A stretch of DNA of 35,799 nt. It comes from a virus. A program made the position numbers and the translations under genes. Shown here piece by piece: positions 14,309 to 35,799 of the stretch (positions are counted from its first letter, which is position 1; every line of letters begins with the position of its first letter). The stretch is taken from IMG/VR virus record IMGVR_UViG_3300045988_086486. The stretch is one strand, 5' to 3'. Under the pieces are notes generated by a model. That model worked only from the letters and a program-made list of their open reading frames with translations. It did not search any database and had not been told where the DNA came from.

Positions 14309-14713
14309 ATGCAGGGACAAGAGAGGGAACGCAAAGAGCCGTCCGAATTCAATGTGATTGTGAAGGCGAAAGACCTTGTAAAGCATACCTTCACGATCAC
14401 GAACAGCACGGAGCGTTACCCGAAAAAATACCGTTTTACGCTGGTGAACCGCATACAGGAAAAAGCGGTTGATATTTACGAAATGACGCTTGAAGCGAAC
14501 GAATTAGATTTGCGGCAAGCGGACGAACACAGACAACGGCAGAGGCTACAAGCAAAGGCGTTGACCTATTGCAAGGAGCTTCTATTTTTTATAGAGCTTT
14601 CGCAGGAAATGGGCTTTATTTCTATGAAGAGTTGCGAATATTGGTCGAAACTTGCCCTTGAAGTAAAGTACATGATCGCCGCGTGGAAGAAGCGGGACAA
14701 AGCGAGAGTATAA
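14309..14713 (+). CDS. avd: DGR accessory variability determinant (Avd, four-helix-bundle type)
   Basis: 134 aa, basic and predicted helical (FNVIVKAKDLVKHTFTIT..RYPKKYRFTLVNRIQEKAVDIYE). It lies directly upstream of the TR and RT. Confidence 0.8.
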   Translation: MQGQERERKEPSEFNVIVKAKDLVKHTFTITNSTERYPKKYRFTLVNRIQEKAVDIYEMTLEANELDLRQADEHRQRQRLQAKALTYCKELLFFIELSQEMGFISMKSCEYWSKLALEVKYMIAAWKKRDKARV

Positions 14714-14767
14714 AAACCGTTTGGGGAACGCCTTGTAGGTTTTCTTTTCGCCTTCTGCCCGCCCCGC

Positions 14768-14868
14768 CGCCGAATTCCGGCAACTCGTACAATGTGCGCA
14801 ATGTCAACACTTCGGGGGCATTGAACAACAACAACGCGTACAACGGCAACAGGGGCGTGCGTCCGCTT
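14768..14868 (+). repeat. DGR template repeat (TR), 101 bp with 27 adenines
   Basis: It aligns without gaps to 16801-16901 and, over 14791-14868, to 30492-30569. It reads as AAY-rich codons (NSGNSYNVRNVNTSGALNNNNAYNGNRGVRPL). Confidence 0.9.
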
Positions 14869-15039
14869 CGGTGGATCACTCGATCGAGTAGGCCACAGGC
14901 CGAAAGCAATGTACCACCATCAAAGGAAGGCGTTTCCCGTCCCCTGCTATCCACAGCGGGGACAAATACAGGATTGCCGATACCGGAGCATTGCCCGCAG
15001 GCATGGCCGAGGTTATACACGGCAAGGAGATTTTTTGAC

Positions 15040-16002
15040 ATGACCGACTTTGAAAAAGTCTATAATTTTGAAAACCTATACCGCGCGTACCGGAAGGCGC
15101 GCCGCGGCAAAAGGTGGAAAGGAGCGGCGGCGAAGTTTGAAGTTAATTTGCTGGAAGCCCTGAACCTGTTAAGCGTGCAGTTACAGAGCCATACATACCG
15201 GCTTTCGCCCTACAACACATTCAAGGTTTACGAACCGAAAGAACGGGTTGTAATGTCGAACAGCTACAAAGACAAGGTTGTGCAACATGCGCTTTGTGAT
15301 AATGTACTTGAACCGAGGGTGCGAAGCACCTTCATAAAAGACAATTACGCTTCACAGGTTGGAAAAGGAACGCACTTCGGCCTTGAACGGCTGGAAGGGT
15401 TTATGCGGAGGTTTTACCGTGTACGAGGTGTTGACGGTTGGGTATTGAAATGCGACATATCAAAGTATTTCTATAATATCAAGCACGACGCGTTAAAATC
15501 CTTAATCCGCAAGTATATTTCCGATCCGGATTGTCTTTGGTTGCTGGATATGATAATAGACAGCACCGAAGGCAATGTAGGAATTCCGATCGGCAACCAG
15601 TCTTCACAAATATTCGCCCTTCTCTATCTTTCTTCGCTGGATCACATGGTAAAAGAGAAGTTAGGCATAAAATTTTATGGCCGATACATGGACGATTTTT
15701 ATTTGATCCACGAAGATAAAGAATATTTGCGCTATTGCTGGAAGGAGATTGAAATACATGTAAACGAATTAGGGCTTTCGCTGAATGCGAAAACAAATAT
15801 TTACCCGTTGAAAAACGGAATTGATTTTTTGGGCTTCCATTCGTATTTGACCGAAAGCGGCGCGGTGATCCGCAAGGTGCGCCGGAAGTCAAAGAACAAC
15901 GCCCGCCGCCGTTTAACCAAAATGCGCGGGTTGCTGGAAACTGGAAAAATCACGCCGGAAAAGGTGGAACAATCTTATAAAAGCTGGCGCGGCCACGCGT
16001 AG
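15040..16002 (+). CDS. DGR reverse transcriptase
   Basis: ATG at 15040. The N-terminus (NLYRAYRKARRGKRWK), the motif IPIGNQSSQ, the catalytic YMDDF, and the size of about 320 aa are all typical of DGR RTs. Confidence 0.93.
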   Translation: MTDFEKVYNFENLYRAYRKARRGKRWKGAAAKFEVNLLEALNLLSVQLQSHTYRLSPYNTFKVYEPKERVVMSNSYKDKVVQHALCDNVLEPRVRSTFIKDNYASQVGKGTHFGLERLEGFMRRFYRVRGVDGWVLKCDISKYFYNIKHDALKSLIRKYISDPDCLWLLDMIIDSTEGNVGIPIGNQSSQIFALLYLSSLDHMVKEKLGIKFYGRYMDDFYLIHEDKEYLRYCWKEIEIHVNELGLSLNAKTNIYPLKNGIDFLGFHSYLTESGAVIRKVRRKSKNNARRRLTKMRGLLETGKITPEKVEQSYKSWRGHA

Positions 16003-16127
16003 AAGGGGAATTGCTATCACCTGATCCGGAACATGGATCAGCATTACAACAAATTATTCGGGCAGTACGCCGTCGCGGGAAACCGTGGCGGCGTTGCTGT
16101 TTCCGAAGAAAAGGAGGAAGGCAAAGA

Positions 16128-17861
16128 ATGTCGAAAAAGTTAAGCACGCTTGGCGTGGGAACAACCTTTGAAGTGCCCGTAAAGTCGGCTTATCGGTCGT
16201 TCTTGGGTGATTATGTCGTTTTCAAAATGGCAGACAAAAACCATTCGGGCTATCCGTCCGGAGCTATTACCCTGATTACCGACAAGATCATAGCGTTGCT
16301 TTGTTCCGACGCAAAAGAGCCAAACAACAGCGACAGCAACCGGAGAAGCTACGGCAACAACAGGCACATTCATTCCAATATCCTTCAATGGCTGAACAGT
16401 AACGCCGCGGCGGGAAAATGGTACAGCGCGAAGCACGGGCAGGACGCGCCGCCGTCAAGCGCGAATGTATGGGACAATGTAAACCCCTATGACACATGGG
16501 CGGGGTTCCTTGCTATGCTTGACGACGATTTTGTAGCGGCACTTATGACAACCACGCTTACCGTTGCAAAAAATACCGTTACGGACGGCGGGAGCTATGA
16601 AACCTTCACCGCAAAAATGTTCCTTGCAAGCACAACGGAAGTTGGGCTTGCAAACGAAAACGGGATTGCAGAGGGTTCAAAGCTGGCCTTGTTCAGCGAC
16701 AACACAAGCCGCCTTGCCTATTGTACGCAAGCGGCCATTGACAAAAGTAATTACGGGAGCGATCCGACGACTTCGCAGGCGTGGTATTGGTGGCTTCGCA
16801 CGCCGTATTCCGGCAACTCGTACTATGTGCGCTATGTCTACACTTCGGGGGCATTGGGCAGCTACAACGCGTACTACGGCTACTGGGGCGTGCGTCCGCT
16901 TTGTAATTTGAAATCTGATATTTTGGTATCTGATAACAAAAACAGCCGCGGAAACTATGAATTCCAGTGGAACACCGCACCGAGCGCGCCGGACGGAATT
17001 TCCGTGCCGGAAAGCTGTTACAGCACGCAAAACATAACCGTAACATGGGGAGCTTCCACCGATCCGGACGGCGACGCGATCACCTATGTTCTGGAACGGT
17101 CGGTGAATAACGGGAGCTACACGAAAGTAACGGAAACCGCCGCCCGCACCTTTACGGAAGTCGTTTCTACAAGTTGGAACACGATCAAATACCGCGTGAA
17201 GGCGCGGGACACCTACGGGAACGAAAGTGCGTATGTGACTTCTTCCGCGGTTCCCGTAATTCACAATCAACCGCCCGTCATTTCCGGACAAAACGCCGAT
17301 CTTGGAACGAAAAGCGGCGACTTCTCTTACAAGTACACCGTGACCGATCCGGACGGTGACACGGTGACAGTGGTTGAAAAGGTGGACGAAACCATCTTGC
17401 GGAGCTACACGCCCACGCTTGGAGAAGAAAACACGATGAATGTTACGGGGCACGACTTCACCGCCCTTTCCAACGGCGCGCACGCAATCACCATTACCGC
17501 AACGGACACCGTGGGAAATAAAGCGGTGCGCACGCTGACCTTCACAAAACAGATCAGCGGATTTGTTATCACGCTGGCCGCACCGCTGGAAGCGCAGGCA
17601 CAGCCCACGCGCGCAAATGTGAAAGTAACGCGGGAAATTCCAGCGGGCGCAACTTTCAAAGTTGAGGCAACAAACAATCCGTTTGATCCTTCCCCCGCGT
17701 GGGAGGATTGCACAAATGCCGTAATTCAGGGCGTGGCGCATGTCTTCGAGAACACAATAAACACCGCCGTTAAATTCGGCATGAATATTCGGGTAACGGT
17801 GGAGCGCGGCGACGCTATTTCCGCGTGTTGGGTATCTTCGATCGGGGGTAATTTTGAATGA
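16128..17861 (+). CDS. DGR target protein 1: N-terminal variable ligand-binding domain (DUF6273-like), then FN3-like and Ig-like modules
   Basis: ATG at 16128 lies after AAGGAGG. It contains VR1. The segment SAPDGISVP..ITVTWGASTDPDGDAITYVLERS..YRVKARDTYGNES looks like FN3. A second beta-rich module (VTDPDGDTVTV) follows. Confidence 0.85.
   Translation: MSKKLSTLGVGTTFEVPVKSAYRSFLGDYVVFKMADKNHSGYPSGAITLITDKIIALLCSDAKEPNNSDSNRRSYGNNRHIHSNILQWLNSNAAAGKWYSAKHGQDAPPSSANVWDNVNPYDTWAGFLAMLDDDFVAALMTTTLTVAKNTVTDGGSYETFTAKMFLASTTEVGLANENGIAEGSKLALFSDNTSRLAYCTQAAIDKSNYGSDPTTSQAWYWWLRTPYSGNSYYVRYVYTSGALGSYNAYYGYWGVRPLCNLKSDILVSDNKNSRGNYEFQWNTAPSAPDGISVPESCYSTQNITVTWGASTDPDGDAITYVLERSVNNGSYTKVTETAARTFTEVVSTSWNTIKYRVKARDTYGNESAYVTSSAVPVIHNQPPVISGQNADLGTKSGDFSYKYTVTDPDGDTVTVVEKVDETILRSYTPTLGEENTMNVTGHDFTALSNGAHAITITATDTVGNKAVRTLTFTKQISGFVITLAAPLEAQAQPTRANVKVTREIPAGATFKVEATNNPFDPSPAWEDCTNAVIQGVAHVFENTINTAVKFGMNIRVTVERGDAISACWVSSIGGNFE
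16801..16901 (+). repeat. DGR variable repeat 1 (VR1)
   Basis: 101 bp aligned to the TR. By hand alignment there are 11 mismatches, all at TR adenines, and no mismatch at a non-A position. Confidence 0.9.
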
Positions 17862-18388
17862 GCGTAACATACAGGCCGGACAAGCCAAACGAAACAGAGG
17901 AATTGAAGAAGGAAGTTGAAACTGTGAAGGCGGCGGGCGAAAGCACCGCCGCCCTTCTTTCCCTTTCTTTCAAAGCGCAGATTGTCGCAGACCGCGCCGC
18001 GGGAACGAACGCGATTACCGATGAAATGATCCTTGCGTCAACGGATATTGTGGATTATCCGGAGTATCAGGACAACCACGAATACAAGACAAAAGGCGAA
18101 ATTATCAGGTACGACGGCCTTTATTATGAAATCGTCGCGCCGCACACTTCCAACGCCGCCGCGTATCCCGTGCAAACCACCTTTGCATATTACCGCCTTG
18201 TCGAGCTGGAACACGCGGGGACGCTTGACGATCCGATACCATATCCGGAAACCGCGGGGATCGTCGTAAATGTGGTTGAGGGGCTTTATTACAGCTACAA
18301 AGGCGCGGTATATCTGGCGAAGGCCGATATGCCGAATTGCGTTTACCCGCCCGACACGGCGGGTTTGTGGCAATGGGAAAAGGTGTAA
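17858..18388 (+). CDS. Hypothetical tail-module protein with two carbohydrate-binding-like (CBM5/12-like) repeats
   Basis: 176 aa. The start overlaps the target-1 stop (ATGA). The repeats are GEIIRYDGLYYEIVAPHTS..P and GLYYSYKGAVYLAKADMPN...W.W. Confidence 0.45.
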   Translation: MSVTYRPDKPNETEELKKEVETVKAAGESTAALLSLSFKAQIVADRAAGTNAITDEMILASTDIVDYPEYQDNHEYKTKGEIIRYDGLYYEIVAPHTSNAAAYPVQTTFAYYRLVELEHAGTLDDPIPYPETAGIVVNVVEGLYYSYKGAVYLAKADMPNCVYPPDTAGLWQWEKV

Positions 18389-18715: not shown

Positions 18716-19723
18716 ATGGCAGTTATGAAAGCAAGTGAATTTGTTGCGAAACTGAAAGATGTTGCGCAGAATTACAAAACCCTTTATGTCATGGGGTGCT
18801 TTGGCGCGCCCCTGACGGGCGGCAATGTATCGCGGTATTGCAATAACCACGCATACAACAAGCAGGCCGCCCGAACGAAGATGATTAAGGCCGCCGCAAA
18901 CCAGAACCCGCCTGTTTTCGGGTTCGATTGCGTATGCCTGATTAAAGGCATTTTGTGGGGCTGGCGCGGCGACGCGTCCAAAACCTACGGCGGCGCGTCC
19001 TATGCCGTGAACGGCGTTCCGGATATTGGCGCGGATACCATGATTACAAAGTGCAAGGGCGTTTCAACCAACTTTTCCAATGTGGAGGTTGGCGAAGCCC
19101 TTTGGTGTAGCGGGCATATCGGTGTTTATATCGGCGGCGGGCTGGCCGTGGAGTGTTCCCCCGCCTTTGAAAACGATGTGCAGATCACGGCAGTTAAAAA
19201 CATGGGGACAAAGAGCGGGTATAACGCCCGCACATGGACGAAGCACGGCAAACTTCCCTATATCGAATACGACAACGCCGCCCCCGTTCAGCCGGACAAG
19301 CCGGACACCGGAGCGGGCGCAGGCGGCGCAATCAAGGCCGGAAGCGTCGTGCGTGTGAAGCAGGGCGCGAAGACCTACACGGGCGGCGGGCTGGCCTCTT
19401 TCGTGTATGAACGCGATCATGTCGTTTCGGAGCTGAACGGCGATCGCGCCGTTATCACCTACGGCGGCGTAACCGTGGCCGCCGTGCGCGTTTCCGATCT
19501 TGTTCTTGCAGATGGAAGCGGCACGGGCGGCACAATCAAGGCCGGAAGCGTCGTGCGCGTAAAGCAGGGCGCGAAGACCTACACAGGCGGCGGGCTGGCC
19601 TCTTTCGTGTATAGCCGCGATCATGTCGTTTCGGAGCTGAACGGCGATCGTGCCGTTATCACCTACGGCGGCGTGACCGTGGCCGCCGTGCGCGTTTCCG
19701 ATCTCACGCTTGTAAAGGAGTAA
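18716..19723 (+). CDS. Endolysin: NlpC/P60- or CHAP-like cysteine peptidase with two C-terminal cell-wall-binding repeats
   Basis: Cys (FDCVCLIKG) and His (GHIGVYIGG) motifs, a tandem pair of about 60-aa repeats, and location next to the holin gene. Confidence 0.8.
   Translation: MAVMKASEFVAKLKDVAQNYKTLYVMGCFGAPLTGGNVSRYCNNHAYNKQAARTKMIKAAANQNPPVFGFDCVCLIKGILWGWRGDASKTYGGASYAVNGVPDIGADTMITKCKGVSTNFSNVEVGEALWCSGHIGVYIGGGLAVECSPAFENDVQITAVKNMGTKSGYNARTWTKHGKLPYIEYDNAAPVQPDKPDTGAGAGGAIKAGSVVRVKQGAKTYTGGGLASFVYERDHVVSELNGDRAVITYGGVTVAAVRVSDLVLADGSGTGGTIKAGSVVRVKQGAKTYTGGGLASFVYSRDHVVSELNGDRAVITYGGVTVAAVRVSDLTLVKE
19322..19705 (+). repeat. Tandem near-identical 180-bp repeats (19322-19501 and 19526-19705, period 204 bp) encoding the endolysin binding modules
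   Basis: By eye, only a handful of nucleotide differences separate the two copies. Confidence 0.85.
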
Positions 19724-22686: not shown

Positions 22687-23730
22687 ATGGGGCATTGTTT
22701 TAGCCATTTGACAAAGGCAGACCGTTACAAGATCGAAGCGTTATTGAATAACGGCCATTCGGCAAAGGAGATCGCCGCGGAAATTCATGTGCATATCAGC
22801 ACTATTTACCGCGAAGTAAAACGCGCCCGCATGGTTCACCGTAATTCGGATTGGACGGAGGAAGAAAGGTATAATCCGGACGAAGCACACAGGCGATACC
22901 GTGAAAACCTTTCGGCAAAAGGCGCGCCGCTGAAAATTGGCCGTGATTACGCCCTTGCGGAATATCTGGAAAGAAAAGTGCTTGAAGAAGGCCGATCCCC
23001 CGCCGCCGCACTTGCCGACATTGCTTTAGAGGGGCTGGAATTCAAAACCACAATTTGCACAAGCACCTTTTACGGCTACATAACAAAGGGTGTGTTTCTT
23101 ATGCTGACAAACAAGGATTTGCCGGAAAAGGCAAAACGAAAGCGGAAATATCGCAAAGTGAAGACGGCCAAACGCGCCCCACGCGGGAAGAGCATAGAAA
23201 AACGCCCCGCCGAAGTGGAGGGGCGCGAAGTCTTCGGACATTGGGAAATGGATACCGTTTACAGCGGGAAGCAGACTTCAAAGAAAGCCCTTCTTGTGCT
23301 GACGGAGCGGAAGACGCGACAAGAAATTATAGAGCGTATGCCGGATCGGACGGAGGAAAGCACCATAAAGGCACTTGACCGTATAGAACGGCGGTTCGGC
23401 GCGCTATTCCGCAAAGTGTTCAAAACGATCACCGTTGATAATGGCGGGGAATTCTCCAATGTGGAAAGGTTGGAACAATCCGTGATCCGAAAGGGAAAGC
23501 GGACACGCTTTTACTATTGTCACCCGTACAGCAGTTTTGAACGGGGATCAAACGAAAACCAAAATAGAATGATACGGCGGCGATACCCTAAAGGAACAGA
23601 CTTCGGGAAGGTATCAACCGCCGCAATAAAGAACCTTGAACAATGGATCAATAACTATCCGCGTGAAATATTGGGCTGGAAAACTTCTGCAATGTGCTTC
23701 CGAGAATGCCTTGACGCGCTATTAAAATAA
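22687..23730 (+). CDS. IS30-family DDE transposase
   Basis: 347 aa. It has an N-terminal HTH (AKEIAAEIHVHISTIYREVKR) and DDE-region motifs GHWEMDTV, ITVDNGGEF and ERGSNENQNRMIRR. Confidence 0.88.
   Translation: MGHCFSHLTKADRYKIEALLNNGHSAKEIAAEIHVHISTIYREVKRARMVHRNSDWTEEERYNPDEAHRRYRENLSAKGAPLKIGRDYALAEYLERKVLEEGRSPAAALADIALEGLEFKTTICTSTFYGYITKGVFLMLTNKDLPEKAKRKRKYRKVKTAKRAPRGKSIEKRPAEVEGREVFGHWEMDTVYSGKQTSKKALLVLTERKTRQEIIERMPDRTEESTIKALDRIERRFGALFRKVFKTITVDNGGEFSNVERLEQSVIRKGKRTRFYYCHPYSSFERGSNENQNRMIRRRYPKGTDFGKVSTAAIKNLEQWINNYPREILGWKTSAMCFRECLDALLK
22687..23730 (+). mobile_element. IS30-like element core (transposase ORF only; terminal inverted repeats not identified)
   Basis: I found no convincing IR pair in 22629-22686 versus 23731-23892 by eye, so the element boundaries are unresolved. 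Confidence 0.35.
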
Positions 23731-29512: not shown

Positions 29513-29886
29513 CCGCGGGAGCGGGGCGGCTGGTATCGCCCTTTGCAAATGATCCGTTCGCGTTGGTTGCACTGGCCTTCAAGAACCTTTACCCCGAACG
29601 GGAATACGCGGCCTATTTTGCGCCGGAGGTAGAAGACGGAAGCGGCGGCGCGGCTTGCGGGGTGACAACCTTTCCGGAAGACGGATCGCCGCCCGTTGTG
29701 GAGGTATCCGGAGAAATCCCCATTGCGGCAGGCGTTGAAATATTCGCGCACGAATTGGCGCATGTCGCCACGCCGGAAGATCGGGAGCATGGCGAAGCGT
29801 GGAAGGCCGCCTTTGACCGGATTTTTGAGGAATACAACCGGATCGCGCAAGACCTTTTCGGGGAAGGCGGCGAAGAACCATGCTGA
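29506..29886 (+). CDS. Small HExxH-motif protein (putative metallopeptidase-like)
   Basis: 126 aa containing FAHELAHV. The stop overlaps ATG 29880 of the next ORF. Confidence 0.45.
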   Translation: MLTAGAGRLVSPFANDPFALVALAFKNLYPEREYAAYFAPEVEDGSGGAACGVTTFPEDGSPPVVEVSGEIPIAAGVEIFAHELAHVATPEDREHGEAWKAAFDRIFEEYNRIAQDLFGEGGEEPC

Positions 29887-30038
29887 ACGAGCGGGAGCAG
29901 GCCGCACACGATCCCACGATTGCAGAAACGGCGCAGGGGCTTTCCCTTGCGTTTGAAAAATTGAAAGCCGATATATCACAATCACGCGCCGCCCGCTTTG
30001 TGTTGGCGGTGCTGGAAAAATTGAAAGGAGCTATTCAA

Positions 30039-30956
30039 ATGGAAAAGACTTTGAAAACCGGAAAGATCGGACAGTTTGGTGCAGAAAGCCGCGTTACATA
30101 CGGCGGTGTGAAGTGGGTTGTGCTGGACGCACGCCCGAATATGTCGCTTTGTCTTGCGGAAGATGTGTTGAAGGACGAAAACGGCGAAGTTCGGTACATG
30201 GCTTTCGACACGGACAATAAGAACGATTTTGCCGCCTCTTCCGTCCGCGCTTTCCTGAACGGTGATTTTCTGGAAGAGCTGGCCGCCGCGGGTGCGGACA
30301 AAGAAGCGTTTGTGCCGATCGTCCTTGACCTGACTTCCGACGACGGTTTAGACGATTACGGCACGGACAGCGCAAAGATCGGGCTTATCACGGATCAGAT
30401 GTACCGCGCATTCCACAAAATCATTCCGAAAGCGTCGGAAGACTATTGGACTTGTACCCCGTTTTCAACCGAGCGGAACGGCTATAAAAGTTTTGTGCGC
30501 CATGTCGGCGCTTCGGGGGCGTTGCTCAACAGCGACGCGTACATCGGCCGCGGGGGCGTGCGTCCGCTTTGCGCTCTGAAATCTGATATTTTGGTATCTT
30601 ATGACGAAGGAGAAGTGAACGAGCGCAAGCCGTCGTTCGGTGAAATGATCGGGAAAGCCCTTGCGGAAGGGCTGAACAAGGCCATTTTTGGGGAAGACGA
30701 AGAGCCGAAGGGCATTCTTGCCGAAGCGGAGGCGCAGGCCGCCCGCGAAAAGGAGCAGGAAGACGAAGACCAGAAACGCGCGGACGCGGTGGACATGATG
30801 AAGCACATTGCCGCCGCCTTCGATATTCCGGCCACAATCGGAGAAGGCAAACAGGAAGAGCAGGAAAAAGAAGCAAAACAGCTTTTCGGCTGGTATTCGG
30901 AGCTGAAAAAGGCCGGATTTACCGACGCGCAGGCGTTCGAGCTTATCAAGGGATAA
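30039..30956 (+). CDS. DGR target protein 2 (DUF6273-like variable domain plus acidic helical C-terminal tail)
   Basis: ATG at 30039 is preceded by the conserved cassette GAAAGGAGCTATTCAA. An in-frame alternative start at 29880 overlaps the upstream stop. The gene contains VR2, and its domain end (SGAL..A..G..GVRPLC.LKSDILVS) is shared with target 1. Confidence 0.8.
   Translation: MEKTLKTGKIGQFGAESRVTYGGVKWVVLDARPNMSLCLAEDVLKDENGEVRYMAFDTDNKNDFAASSVRAFLNGDFLEELAAAGADKEAFVPIVLDLTSDDGLDDYGTDSAKIGLITDQMYRAFHKIIPKASEDYWTCTPFSTERNGYKSFVRHVGASGALLNSDAYIGRGGVRPLCALKSDILVSYDEGEVNERKPSFGEMIGKALAEGLNKAIFGEDEEPKGILAEAEAQAAREKEQEDEDQKRADAVDMMKHIAAAFDIPATIGEGKQEEQEKEAKQLFGWYSELKKAGFTDAQAFELIKG
30492..30569 (+). 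repeat. DGR variable repeat 2 (VR2)
   Basis: 78 bp align without gaps to TR 14791-14868. By hand alignment there are 15 mismatches, all at TR adenines, and all non-A positions are identical. Confidence 0.88.
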
Positions 30957-35700: not shown

Positions 35701-35799
35701 CGGGTGTACACGTGGGGGGTGTGGTTGACGGCACAGAAAGGGGGCGTTTTTTGTGGCGACAAAGAAGGAGCTTACGAAAGAACAGAAGATCAAAAAAGA
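35701..35799. repeat. Second copy of the 99-bp terminal repeat
   Basis: Identical to 1-99. Confidence 0.95.

Follow-up and report, generated by a model that had tools for sequence, protein, structure and literature searches.

Does the reverse transcriptase (RT) locus of the virus record IMGVR_UViG_3300045988_086486 in IMG/VR constitute a working diversity-generating retroelement (DGR), and what does it diversify? The stretch analysed comprises 35,799 nucleotides (nt) and is referred to below as the window. An original prediction had placed in it, at 14309-17861, a complete DGR made up of an avd-like gene, a template repeat (TR), an RT gene and a target gene bearing a variable repeat (VR1). 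We conclude, with a probability of roughly 0.9, that the locus is an adenine-templated DGR of the nd12/tentaclin type with two targets, recently active and of doubtful activity now. The cassette lies in the predicted interval and contains avd, TR, RT and target, but a second variable repeat (VR2) is situated outside it at 30494-30569, its remote target gene had been missed, and the RT gene is cut by a nonsense codon private to this genome. The parts of the cassette are as follows.

14309-14713, + strand: avd-like gene, 134 amino acids (aa), isoelectric point 9.3
14768-14868, + strand: TR, with 27 adenines and 11 AAY codons in the frame of the target
14869-15039, + strand: spacer RNA from TR to RT, with duplex strands, hairpins and a long stem-loop
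15040-16002, + strand: DGR RT, truncated, 320 aa, with IGNQSSQ at aa 184 and YMDD at aa 216
16128-17861, + strand: target 1, tentaclin-type, 577 aa, with N-terminal DUF6273 followed by immunoglobulin (Ig)/FN3-like domains
16801-16901, + strand: VR1, coding for target 1 residues 226-258, where DUF6273 reaches its C-terminal end

The TR and VR1 align over 101 nt without gaps and with 89% identity, the repeat finder having returned the same coordinates as those first proposed by hand. Scripted comparison also reproduces exactly the 27 TR adenines and the 11 mismatches claimed earlier (16806, 16824, 16833, 16839, 16857, 16858, 16861, 16863, 16875, 16881 and 16884). All the 11 are opposite TR adenines and no C, G or T position differs, in agreement with the claim that non-adenine mismatches are absent; for a TR composed of 27 A, 30 C, 27 G and 17 T the hypergeometric probability of this distribution is 8.2e-8. 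Read in the frame of target 1 (ATG at 16128) the TR translates as PNSGNSYNVRNVNTSGALNNNNAYNGNRGVRPL, which bears out its description as AAY-rich. The adenines occupy codon positions 1 or 2 in 26 of the 27 cases, as do all 11 VR1 changes.

A search of the window with a TR pattern in which the adenines were masked has identified VR2, 13.7 kilobases (kb) away in an open reading frame (ORF) of the replication module.

30494-30569, + strand: VR2, 76 nt aligned with TR 14793-14868, 13 mismatches
29880-30956, + strand: target 2, 358 aa, with a DUF6273-type C-terminal segment, in the replication/early module

The 13 mismatches of VR2 are likewise all located at TR adenines (P = 5.1e-10). Since the adenines lie in AAY codons, about 1.7e15 protein variants of VR1 and 1.2e11 of VR2 would be reachable without stop codons.

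The same masked pattern located 22 viral, 109 metagenomic and 8 genomic loci, the repeats of which were sorted into TR, VR1 and VR2 by their 3' flank. The TR cores are nearly invariant (40/48 identical), whereas 41/41 VR1 cores and 69/71 VR2 cores are distinct. Because the masked pattern forces non-adenine positions to match, the variable repeats were relocated by flanking anchors alone, and each VR1 so located was compared with its own TR at the 26 loci carrying both.

TR base A: VR1 differs at 339/660 positions (51.4%)
TR base C: VR1 differs at 2/783 positions (0.26%)
TR base G: VR1 differs at 2/732 positions (0.27%)
TR base T: VR1 differs at 7/451 positions (1.6%)

The concentration of variation at TR adenines (51% against 0.3-1.6%) is what the original prediction had expected of population data. 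Among 53 flank-located VR2 repeats there are 509 changes at adenine sites and 0 at other sites. With respect to the closest relatives the variable repeats diverge by 11-14% per nt, over a background of 1.3-2.1%.

Bases private to one TR serve as natural markers. The adenine at 14820 is private to the window, the base being G in 45/45 related TRs, 42/42 VR1s and 53/53 VR2s; the window's own VR1 carries the A, and its VR2 has G. Among the relatives, a private T or C at two former adenine sites of the TR recurs in the cognate VR1 in 9/10 cases, and the TR of a Pseudoflavonifractor prophage has four private non-adenine bases (G, C, T, G), all of which are found in both its VR1 and its VR2. Variation in each variable repeat is limited to positions at which its own TR has kept an A. 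These shared private bases mean that sequence flows between the TR and both targets, and the copying of A14820 into VR1 places homing in the window's lineage very recently, shortly before any impairment of the RT. On these sequence comparisons the DGR is to be regarded as recently active in this lineage.

Two further features of the related repeats have been observed. The TRs of L140 (Pseudoflavonifractor sp. Marseille-P3106, LT827124; 5978-6053) and L054 (10137-10212) show 4-6 substitutions of A by other bases, clustered towards the 3' end; VR2 of the same genome carries the substituted bases, and VR1 does so fully in one and partly in the other. Either mutagenised complementary DNA (cDNA) occasionally homes into the TR or a variable repeat converts it, and either route would wear down the stock of adenines on which diversification can act. 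In AAY codons of related VR1s the second A is rarely changed to C (0-2/42 per site), and the first A is changed to all three bases. The same bias of the second A is reported for nd4- and nd12-like phages in PMC10743442; its cause could be a property of the RT or selection against Thr, Pro and Ala codons.

A contig (L012 72-444, IMGVR_UViG_3300029127_000058) has the 5' part of target 2 joined to TR-spacer-RT, and proteins of 549 aa (P0063-P0070) and 541-542 aa (P0008, P0013, P0017 and P0018) match the N-terminal two-thirds of target 2 only and are much longer than it, the presence of a tentaclin C-terminal part in them being inferred from their lengths alone. These are likely to be assembly chimeras across the 76-101-nt TR/VR repeats, real recombinants being a possible alternative origin.

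The RT encoded at 15040-16002 carries the IGNQSSQ and YMDD hallmarks ascribed to it. Its best solved relative is PDB 8ub7_A (E = 4.9e-42, 147 bits), a chain with 100% sequence identity to the brt product of Bordetella phage BPP-1; the assignment of 8ub7_A to bRT was made by sequence comparison, and the text of the cryo-electron microscopy (cryo-EM) preprint does not mention 8UB7. The matches to group II RT (E = 1.5e-13) and retron-type RT (3.5e-13) reach about 53-54 bits or less, and this comparison places the enzyme with DGR RTs, as had been proposed. The protein also matches phrog_1423 (E = 3.5e-127) and Pfam RVT_1 (E = 1.1e-14), and the equivalents of bRT residues R74 and I181 are kept in the alignment with 8ub7_A (in EPKER and GIPIGNQSSQ respectively). 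Every NCBIfam model for group II, retron, Drt or Abi membership scores far under its cut-off (group_II_RT_mat 103 of 300 bits, retron_St85 39 of 235, Drt3a 66 of 200). The small basic gene preceding the TR had been claimed as Avd-like; its product matches phrog_3206, the 'Avd protein of DGR' (E = 1.2e-27), and has no match by sequence in PDB.

The RT gene is not intact in the window.

16000-16002, + strand: private in-frame TAG, TCG to TAG through C to A at 16001, ending the RT 47 codons early
16003-16143, + strand: continuation of the RT frame, KGNCYHLIRNMDQHYNKLF..., a conserved thumb end, untranslated here unless the TAG is read through

The coordinates and motifs given earlier for this ORF stand, but its end proves to be a nonsense codon without counterpart in relatives. 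A sense codon occupies position 321 in 86 of 87 related sequences, being TCG in 56; the sole other TAG is that of the source contig itself. In the relatives the frame runs past WRGHA for about 30-47 codons, to about 367 aa, and overlaps the start of target 1. The nearest relative, L142, encodes an RT of 367 aa and shows only 2 nt differences across 15040-16140, one of which is the C-to-A change at 16001. The lost segment corresponds to the last part of the thumb and is homologous to the C-terminus of bRT (QWADTHNLFTWMEEQY). As the private nonsense codon removes this conserved thumb end, the current activity of the DGR in this assembly is doubtful, and on balance the RT is probably impaired or inactive in this genome. 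The TAG is most simply explained by a nonsense mutation of recent date or by an assembly error in one base. Recoding or suppression of TAG was considered and rejected: no tRNA genes, suppressors included, were found in the window, the other genes are intact under code 11, and TAA, TGA and TAG are used as ordinary stops.

The foremost alternative is that the same DGR is fully functional here, the TAG being a minority allele or due to faulty assembly or sequencing, or the RT of 320 aa being active all the same. We consider this possible, at less than even odds. The assembly is a metagenomic consensus and departs at this site by a single base from a relative nearly identical across the RT; the catalytic motifs all lie upstream of the TAG, and the private A14820 in VR1 speaks for very recent homing. 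Against these stand the open frame of the other relatives, the preservation of the lost segment from related phages through to bRT, where the thumb is known from the BPP-1 cryo-EM study to contact the primer duplex, the spacer RNA and the RNA 'Thumb Ring', and the lack of a suppressor tRNA or any sign of TAG recoding in the window. An RT impaired by the nonsense codon is therefore preferred.

The region that encodes the RT tail in the relatives also contains, at 16067-16094 and just 5' of the ribosome-binding site of target 1, a 12-base pair (bp) GC-rich stem with a GAAA loop (ACGCCGTCGCGG GAAA CCGTGGCGGCGT). Comparable stems are present in three related loci (L150, L151 and L156), and the region is absent from nd12-like phages. 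The stem may be a terminator or an element of translational coupling.

The RNA around the TR was examined in an alignment (A4) of 52 distinct sequences covering the 3' end of avd, the TR and the spacer, from relatives with RTs 69-100% identical to that of the window. An explicitly stated structure of 42 pairs was counted on it, with partners slid by 1-3 columns and 500 shuffles as controls.

14723-14734, + strand: 5' strand (GGGGAACGCCUU) of a 12-bp duplex, counterpart of the 'cPRT Stop' avd:Sp duplex of BPP-1
14723-14734 with 14927-14938: 12-bp duplex between the spacer and the sequence preceding the TR, 98.7% paired, 4 covarying pairs
14870-14874 with 14914-14918: 5-bp duplex GGUGG:CCACC of post-TR bases with the spacer, 99.6% paired, 2 covarying pairs
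14891-14893 with 14899-14901: 3-bp hairpin, 99.4% paired, 1 covarying pair
14942-14961: hairpin, 81.7% paired, 2 covarying pairs
14974-15025: long interrupted stem-loop, 87.8-98.7% paired in three segments, 7 covarying pairs

In the stated structure 93.8% of the cells are paired as against 40-48% with slid partners, 16 pairs show compensatory changes as against 0-5, and the covariation score is 0.165 as against at most 0.061 in the controls. The observed values were reached by 0/500 shuffles on four of the five measures and by 2/500 on the fifth. The compensatory changes of the 12-bp duplex comprise UA/AU (11), AU/GC (11) and CG/UA (3), and an invariant CAAAGGAAG (14921-14929) follows the 5-bp duplex in 52 of 54 distinct sequences. 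The support is from comparative analysis alone, folding of the single spacer sequence being no better than that of shuffles (z = -0.78). A 9-11-bp Avd-binding stem directly 3' of the TR was not found, the 3-bp hairpin being the only one there. The BPP-1 cryo-EM study has already predicted such RNA elements in 207 other DGRs, and the layout described here is for that reason a confirmation and not a discovery.

That TR and VRs are ordinary paralogous repeats kept alike by recombination and altered by adenine-biased mutation unrelated to the RT, the RT itself being derived from a retron, group II intron or defence system, is highly improbable, for although the top NCBIfam model for the RT is the group II intron RT/maturase (E = 1.3e-29), its score is far under the cut-off in a collection apparently without a DGR-RT model and the score against bRT is about three times that against any group II or retron-type RT, the non-coding TR is invariant while the two coding copies vary only at TR adenines, private TR bases reappear in cognate VRs, the RNA elements on either side of the TR show covariation like that of DGR RNA, and no Rfam family, intron RNA and retron non-coding RNA included, matches any part of the window.

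The two variable repeats are followed by a common flank.

16902-16931, + strand: 3' flank of VR1, TGTAATTTGAAATCTGATATTTTGGTATCT, absent from the TR, a candidate element resembling the initiation of mutagenic homing (IMH) sequence and marking the target
30570-30599, + strand: 3' flank of VR2, TGCGCTCTGAAATCTGATATTTTGGTATCT, common to the VR1 flank

A GC-rich end, GGGGCGTGCGTCCGCTT (GGGGCGTGCGTCCGC), is common to the TR and the VRs, after which the flanks diverge, the TR going on as CGGTGGATCAC and both VRs as TG-N5-TGAAATCTGATATTTTGGTATCT. The flanks of VR1 and VR2 have 23 consecutive identical nt in genes that are otherwise unalignable; 29 nt of the VR1 flank are 100% conserved in 39 distinct sequences, and a motif resembling that of the window is also located 3' of both VRs of nd12.

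Several observations weigh against the proposed reading, in whole or in part. The shared flank also codes for the conserved residues KSDILVS, and its putative role as a DNA homing signal is for this reason not separated from protein constraint; synonymous-site conservation does not distinguish the two in so closely related a family. No GC-rich hairpin, cruciform or inverted repeat was found 3' of either VR, unlike the situation in BPP-1; the hairpin searches returned 6-nt palindromes and a weak AT stem only, and the latter is not kept in nd12. It is conceivable, though unlikely, that the flank of 23 nt without a cruciform is a target-recognition signal of another kind than the IMH and hairpin of BPP-1. 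The Avd-like protein matches the NCBIfam model DivGenRetAVD (E = 2.4e-11, 43.9 bits) below its 80-bit cut-off and Pfam bAvd (E = 4.4e-7) also below cut-off, though both matches extend over the full length. A putative C-type lectin fold of the targets gains no support from the structure prediction of target 2, which, from an alignment of 25 sequences, has a mean predicted local distance difference test score (pLDDT) of 43.8. The activity itself is deduced from comparisons between genomes, and the TAG could be an assembly or sequencing error.

The mechanism envisaged for the DGR is as follows. A transcript reaching from the end of avd through the TR into the spacer would fold such that the sequence preceding the TR pairs with the spacer over 12 bp, the 5 nt just 3' of the TR would pair with the spacer as well, and further hairpins would form 3' of these in the order seen in BPP-1 RNA. 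RT and Avd would bind the folded RNA, and cDNA would be primed from the spacer beside the short duplex, so that initiation would fall at the 3' edge of the TR/VR homology, next to 14869 where this homology ends. The RT would then misincorporate opposite template adenines, and the cDNA would replace VR1 in the tentaclin gene and VR2 in the second gene 13.7 kb off, the flank common to both VRs and absent from the TR marking the recipients. The first two steps, concerned with RNA folding, are borne out here at the level of sequence only, and the remaining ones are inferred by homology with BPP-1.

Target 1 is related over its full length to phrog_10993 (E = 2.9e-196). Pfam DUF6273 has been assigned to aa 48-263 (E = 7e-36), sub-threshold matches to Big_9 and Big_13 cover aa 380-473, and aa 370-494 match a tail-fibre chain in PDB (E = 1.3e-5). 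According to PMC10743442, 'tentaclins' have the VR in their gene's 5' part and an N-terminal C-lectin-like DUF6273 domain with Ig domains behind it, and end in an 'anchor' Ig domain with a seven-residue consensus. The C-terminal 100 residues of target 1 are highly similar to those of nd12_tgt1, and by the orthology of the two proteins target 1 would likewise belong to the tentaclins. The original prediction spoke of a tail module, which holds for the position of the gene only, as PHROGs labels the target family 'Hoc-like head decoration'; this label and the published 'receptor-binding protein' are both proposals for the placement of the predicted protein in the virion.

A 176-aa protein is encoded directly 3' of the tentaclin gene (17858-18388), overlapping its stop codon. 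It shows a sub-threshold match to the carbohydrate-binding family CBM_5_12 (E = 6e-5) and is possibly a tentaclin partner or chaperone.

Target 2 is similar to phrog_9958 (E = 6.9e-48), and Pfam DUF6273 matches it at aa 185-235 (E = 8.5e-8), that is, over the last third of the domain only. Its best protein match is the representative of a cluster, formed at 90% identity, that holds 7,293 distinct sequences; no relative of solved structure was retrieved with a family profile of target 2. The first 53 codons (29880-30038) are confined to the close family of the window, more distant homologues starting with the residue that corresponds to M54 (MEKTLKTGKIG...). The true start may therefore be this alternative one at nt 30039, from which a protein of 305 aa would result.

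In profile-profile comparison of target 2 with the tentaclin's N-terminal domain, the 50-residue VR segment alone was aligned, and the C-terminus of target 2 is a conserved helical region and not an Ig anchor. The gene has Dam methylase, pyrophosphatase and replication initiator genes as neighbours instead of the structural module. It is conceivable, though on the whole unlikely, that target 2 is a diversified non-structural binder and not a virion receptor-binding protein, produced either alongside the early/replication genes or by the prophage. The suggestion derives from these neighbours and the equivalent place of the gene in nd12, and from the circumstance that only the segment of about 50 residues is detectably tentaclin-related while the helical end lacks the Ig anchor. 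If true, such a protein might act on a variable host factor or a defence component.

The closest known system is that of phage nd12 (GenBank OR777946), the best match in the phage collection with 74-80% nt identity over 42% of the compared region. In both, and in identical order, avd, TR and RT are succeeded by a tentaclin gene whose 5' half carries VR1, and a second target, a small DUF6273 protein, is encoded about 12-14 kb downstream. In nd12 target 1 has 579 aa and target 2, 12 kb downstream, has 297 aa, and the mismatches of its two VRs (14 and 15) are also restricted to adenines. Target 1 of the window is 68% identical, over its full length and collinearly, to the founding tentaclin nd12_tgt1; for target 2, which occupies an equivalent place, the identity with nd12_tgt2 is 40%. 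Conservation extends to the spacer and to the motif that flanks the VRs on the 3' side. The window nevertheless represents another phage species with another TR sequence, its target 2 is longer owing to an N-terminal extension and an acidic insert, and only its RT has the private nonsense codon. In the lineage of the window the upstream duplex strand is also set apart from the start of the TR/VR1 homology by about 30 additional nt (14735-14767), the spacing in nd12-like phages being about 4 nt. Should the 12-bp duplex act as a stop to cDNA synthesis in the manner of BPP-1, the window's cDNA would bear a 3' tail unmatched in the VR.

Two-target DGRs of gut phages, with a second small DUF6273 target and adenine-site variation across related genomes, are described by Baykov et al. 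2023 (PMC10743442). The arrangement avd-TR-RT-tentaclin with a remote small DUF6273 target is thus already published, for nd4 and nd12 in that paper and for Faecalibacterium prophages in PMC11792537; the RNA structure, the marker transfer and the Oscillospiraceae hosts have been worked out here and are absent from the passages of PMC10743442 consulted. The Faecalibacterium prophages Lelie and CP11 (PMC11792537) similarly have one DGR with two VRs and a large and a small DUF6273 target, the VR lying at the C-terminal end of DUF6273, and their variation was seen by comparing cognate genomes. They differ in host genus, the near-identical prophages of the window occurring in Pseudoflavonifractor, Ruthenibacterium and an uncultured Ruminococcaceae metagenome-assembled genome (MAG). 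Neither gave a megablast match in the phage collection.

With BPP-1 (mtd-avd-TR-brt) the window has in common a homologous RT, Avd and adenine-specific mutagenesis. The RNA elements follow in the same order, namely a short duplex of the TR 3' end with the spacer, a duplex of upstream sequence with the spacer, a hairpin, an A-rich single strand and a long stem-loop; this correspondence is one of order and topology only. The target of the window lies downstream of the RT and that of BPP-1 upstream, the window has two targets, one of them remote, and its VR lies centrally in a protein of several domains instead of C-terminally. The target domain is DUF6273 and not of the Mtd type, a GC-rich cruciform is lacking after the VR, and the TR/VR homology ends just before the short duplex and not inside it. 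The order avd-TR-RT-target was described beforehand as the less common one, in agreement with a survey (PMC11661182) that assigns 60.2% of cassettes to the orders VR-TR-RT and VR-VR-TR-RT and locates 87% of VRs at the end of the target gene.

The genome begins with the terminase, portal, major head protein, tape measure, Dit, a Sipho_Gp37-type tail protein and a structural protein, after which comes the DGR cassette, succeeded by a small protein, an endolysin, regulators, an IS30-like DDE transposase and, last, the replication genes. An exact 99-nt direct repeat (1-99 and 35701-35799) is the overlap signature of an assembler with k=99, and the window therefore represents a circularly closed phage genome of about 35.7 kb. 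It matches an ENA metagenome contig of 35,717 bp, the source contig, which alone was retrieved when the exact RT sequence was looked up. Loci 96-98.7% identical to the window are present in a Ruthenibacterium MAG, the uncultured Ruminococcaceae MAG and the isolate Pseudoflavonifractor sp. Marseille-P3106, from which it follows that the phage is temperate and has Oscillospiraceae hosts. It is a siphovirus-like phage of gut Oscillospiraceae.

The only candidate for an integrase is the IS30-like DDE transposase at 22687-23730 (HTH_38 and rve domains; phrog_4646 'transposase', E = 2e-137). The same gene, annotated as an IS30 family transposase, is carried by nd12; either the DDE enzyme integrates the phage or both phages carry an insertion sequence. 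The endolysin gene (18716-19723) contains a tandem duplication of 185 nt (19316-19500 and 19520-19704, 94% identity) encoding two C-terminal modules of about 60 aa, probably involved in cell-wall binding. Scans of the window for promoters and terminators gave results not above shuffled expectation.

Gut phages are rich in DGRs, and as a DGR the present one is ordinary; it links the tentaclin phage group to cultured Oscillospiraceae hosts, and the 96-99% identical prophage in Pseudoflavonifractor sp. Marseille-P3106 makes experiments possible. The natural marker transfer points to one TR feeding both targets, and the covariation indicates that the RNA layout known from cryo-EM of the Bordetella system is kept in a distant phage of Bacillota. 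The natural truncation of the RT thumb, one base from a wild-type relative, could serve to test the need for the C-terminal helix.

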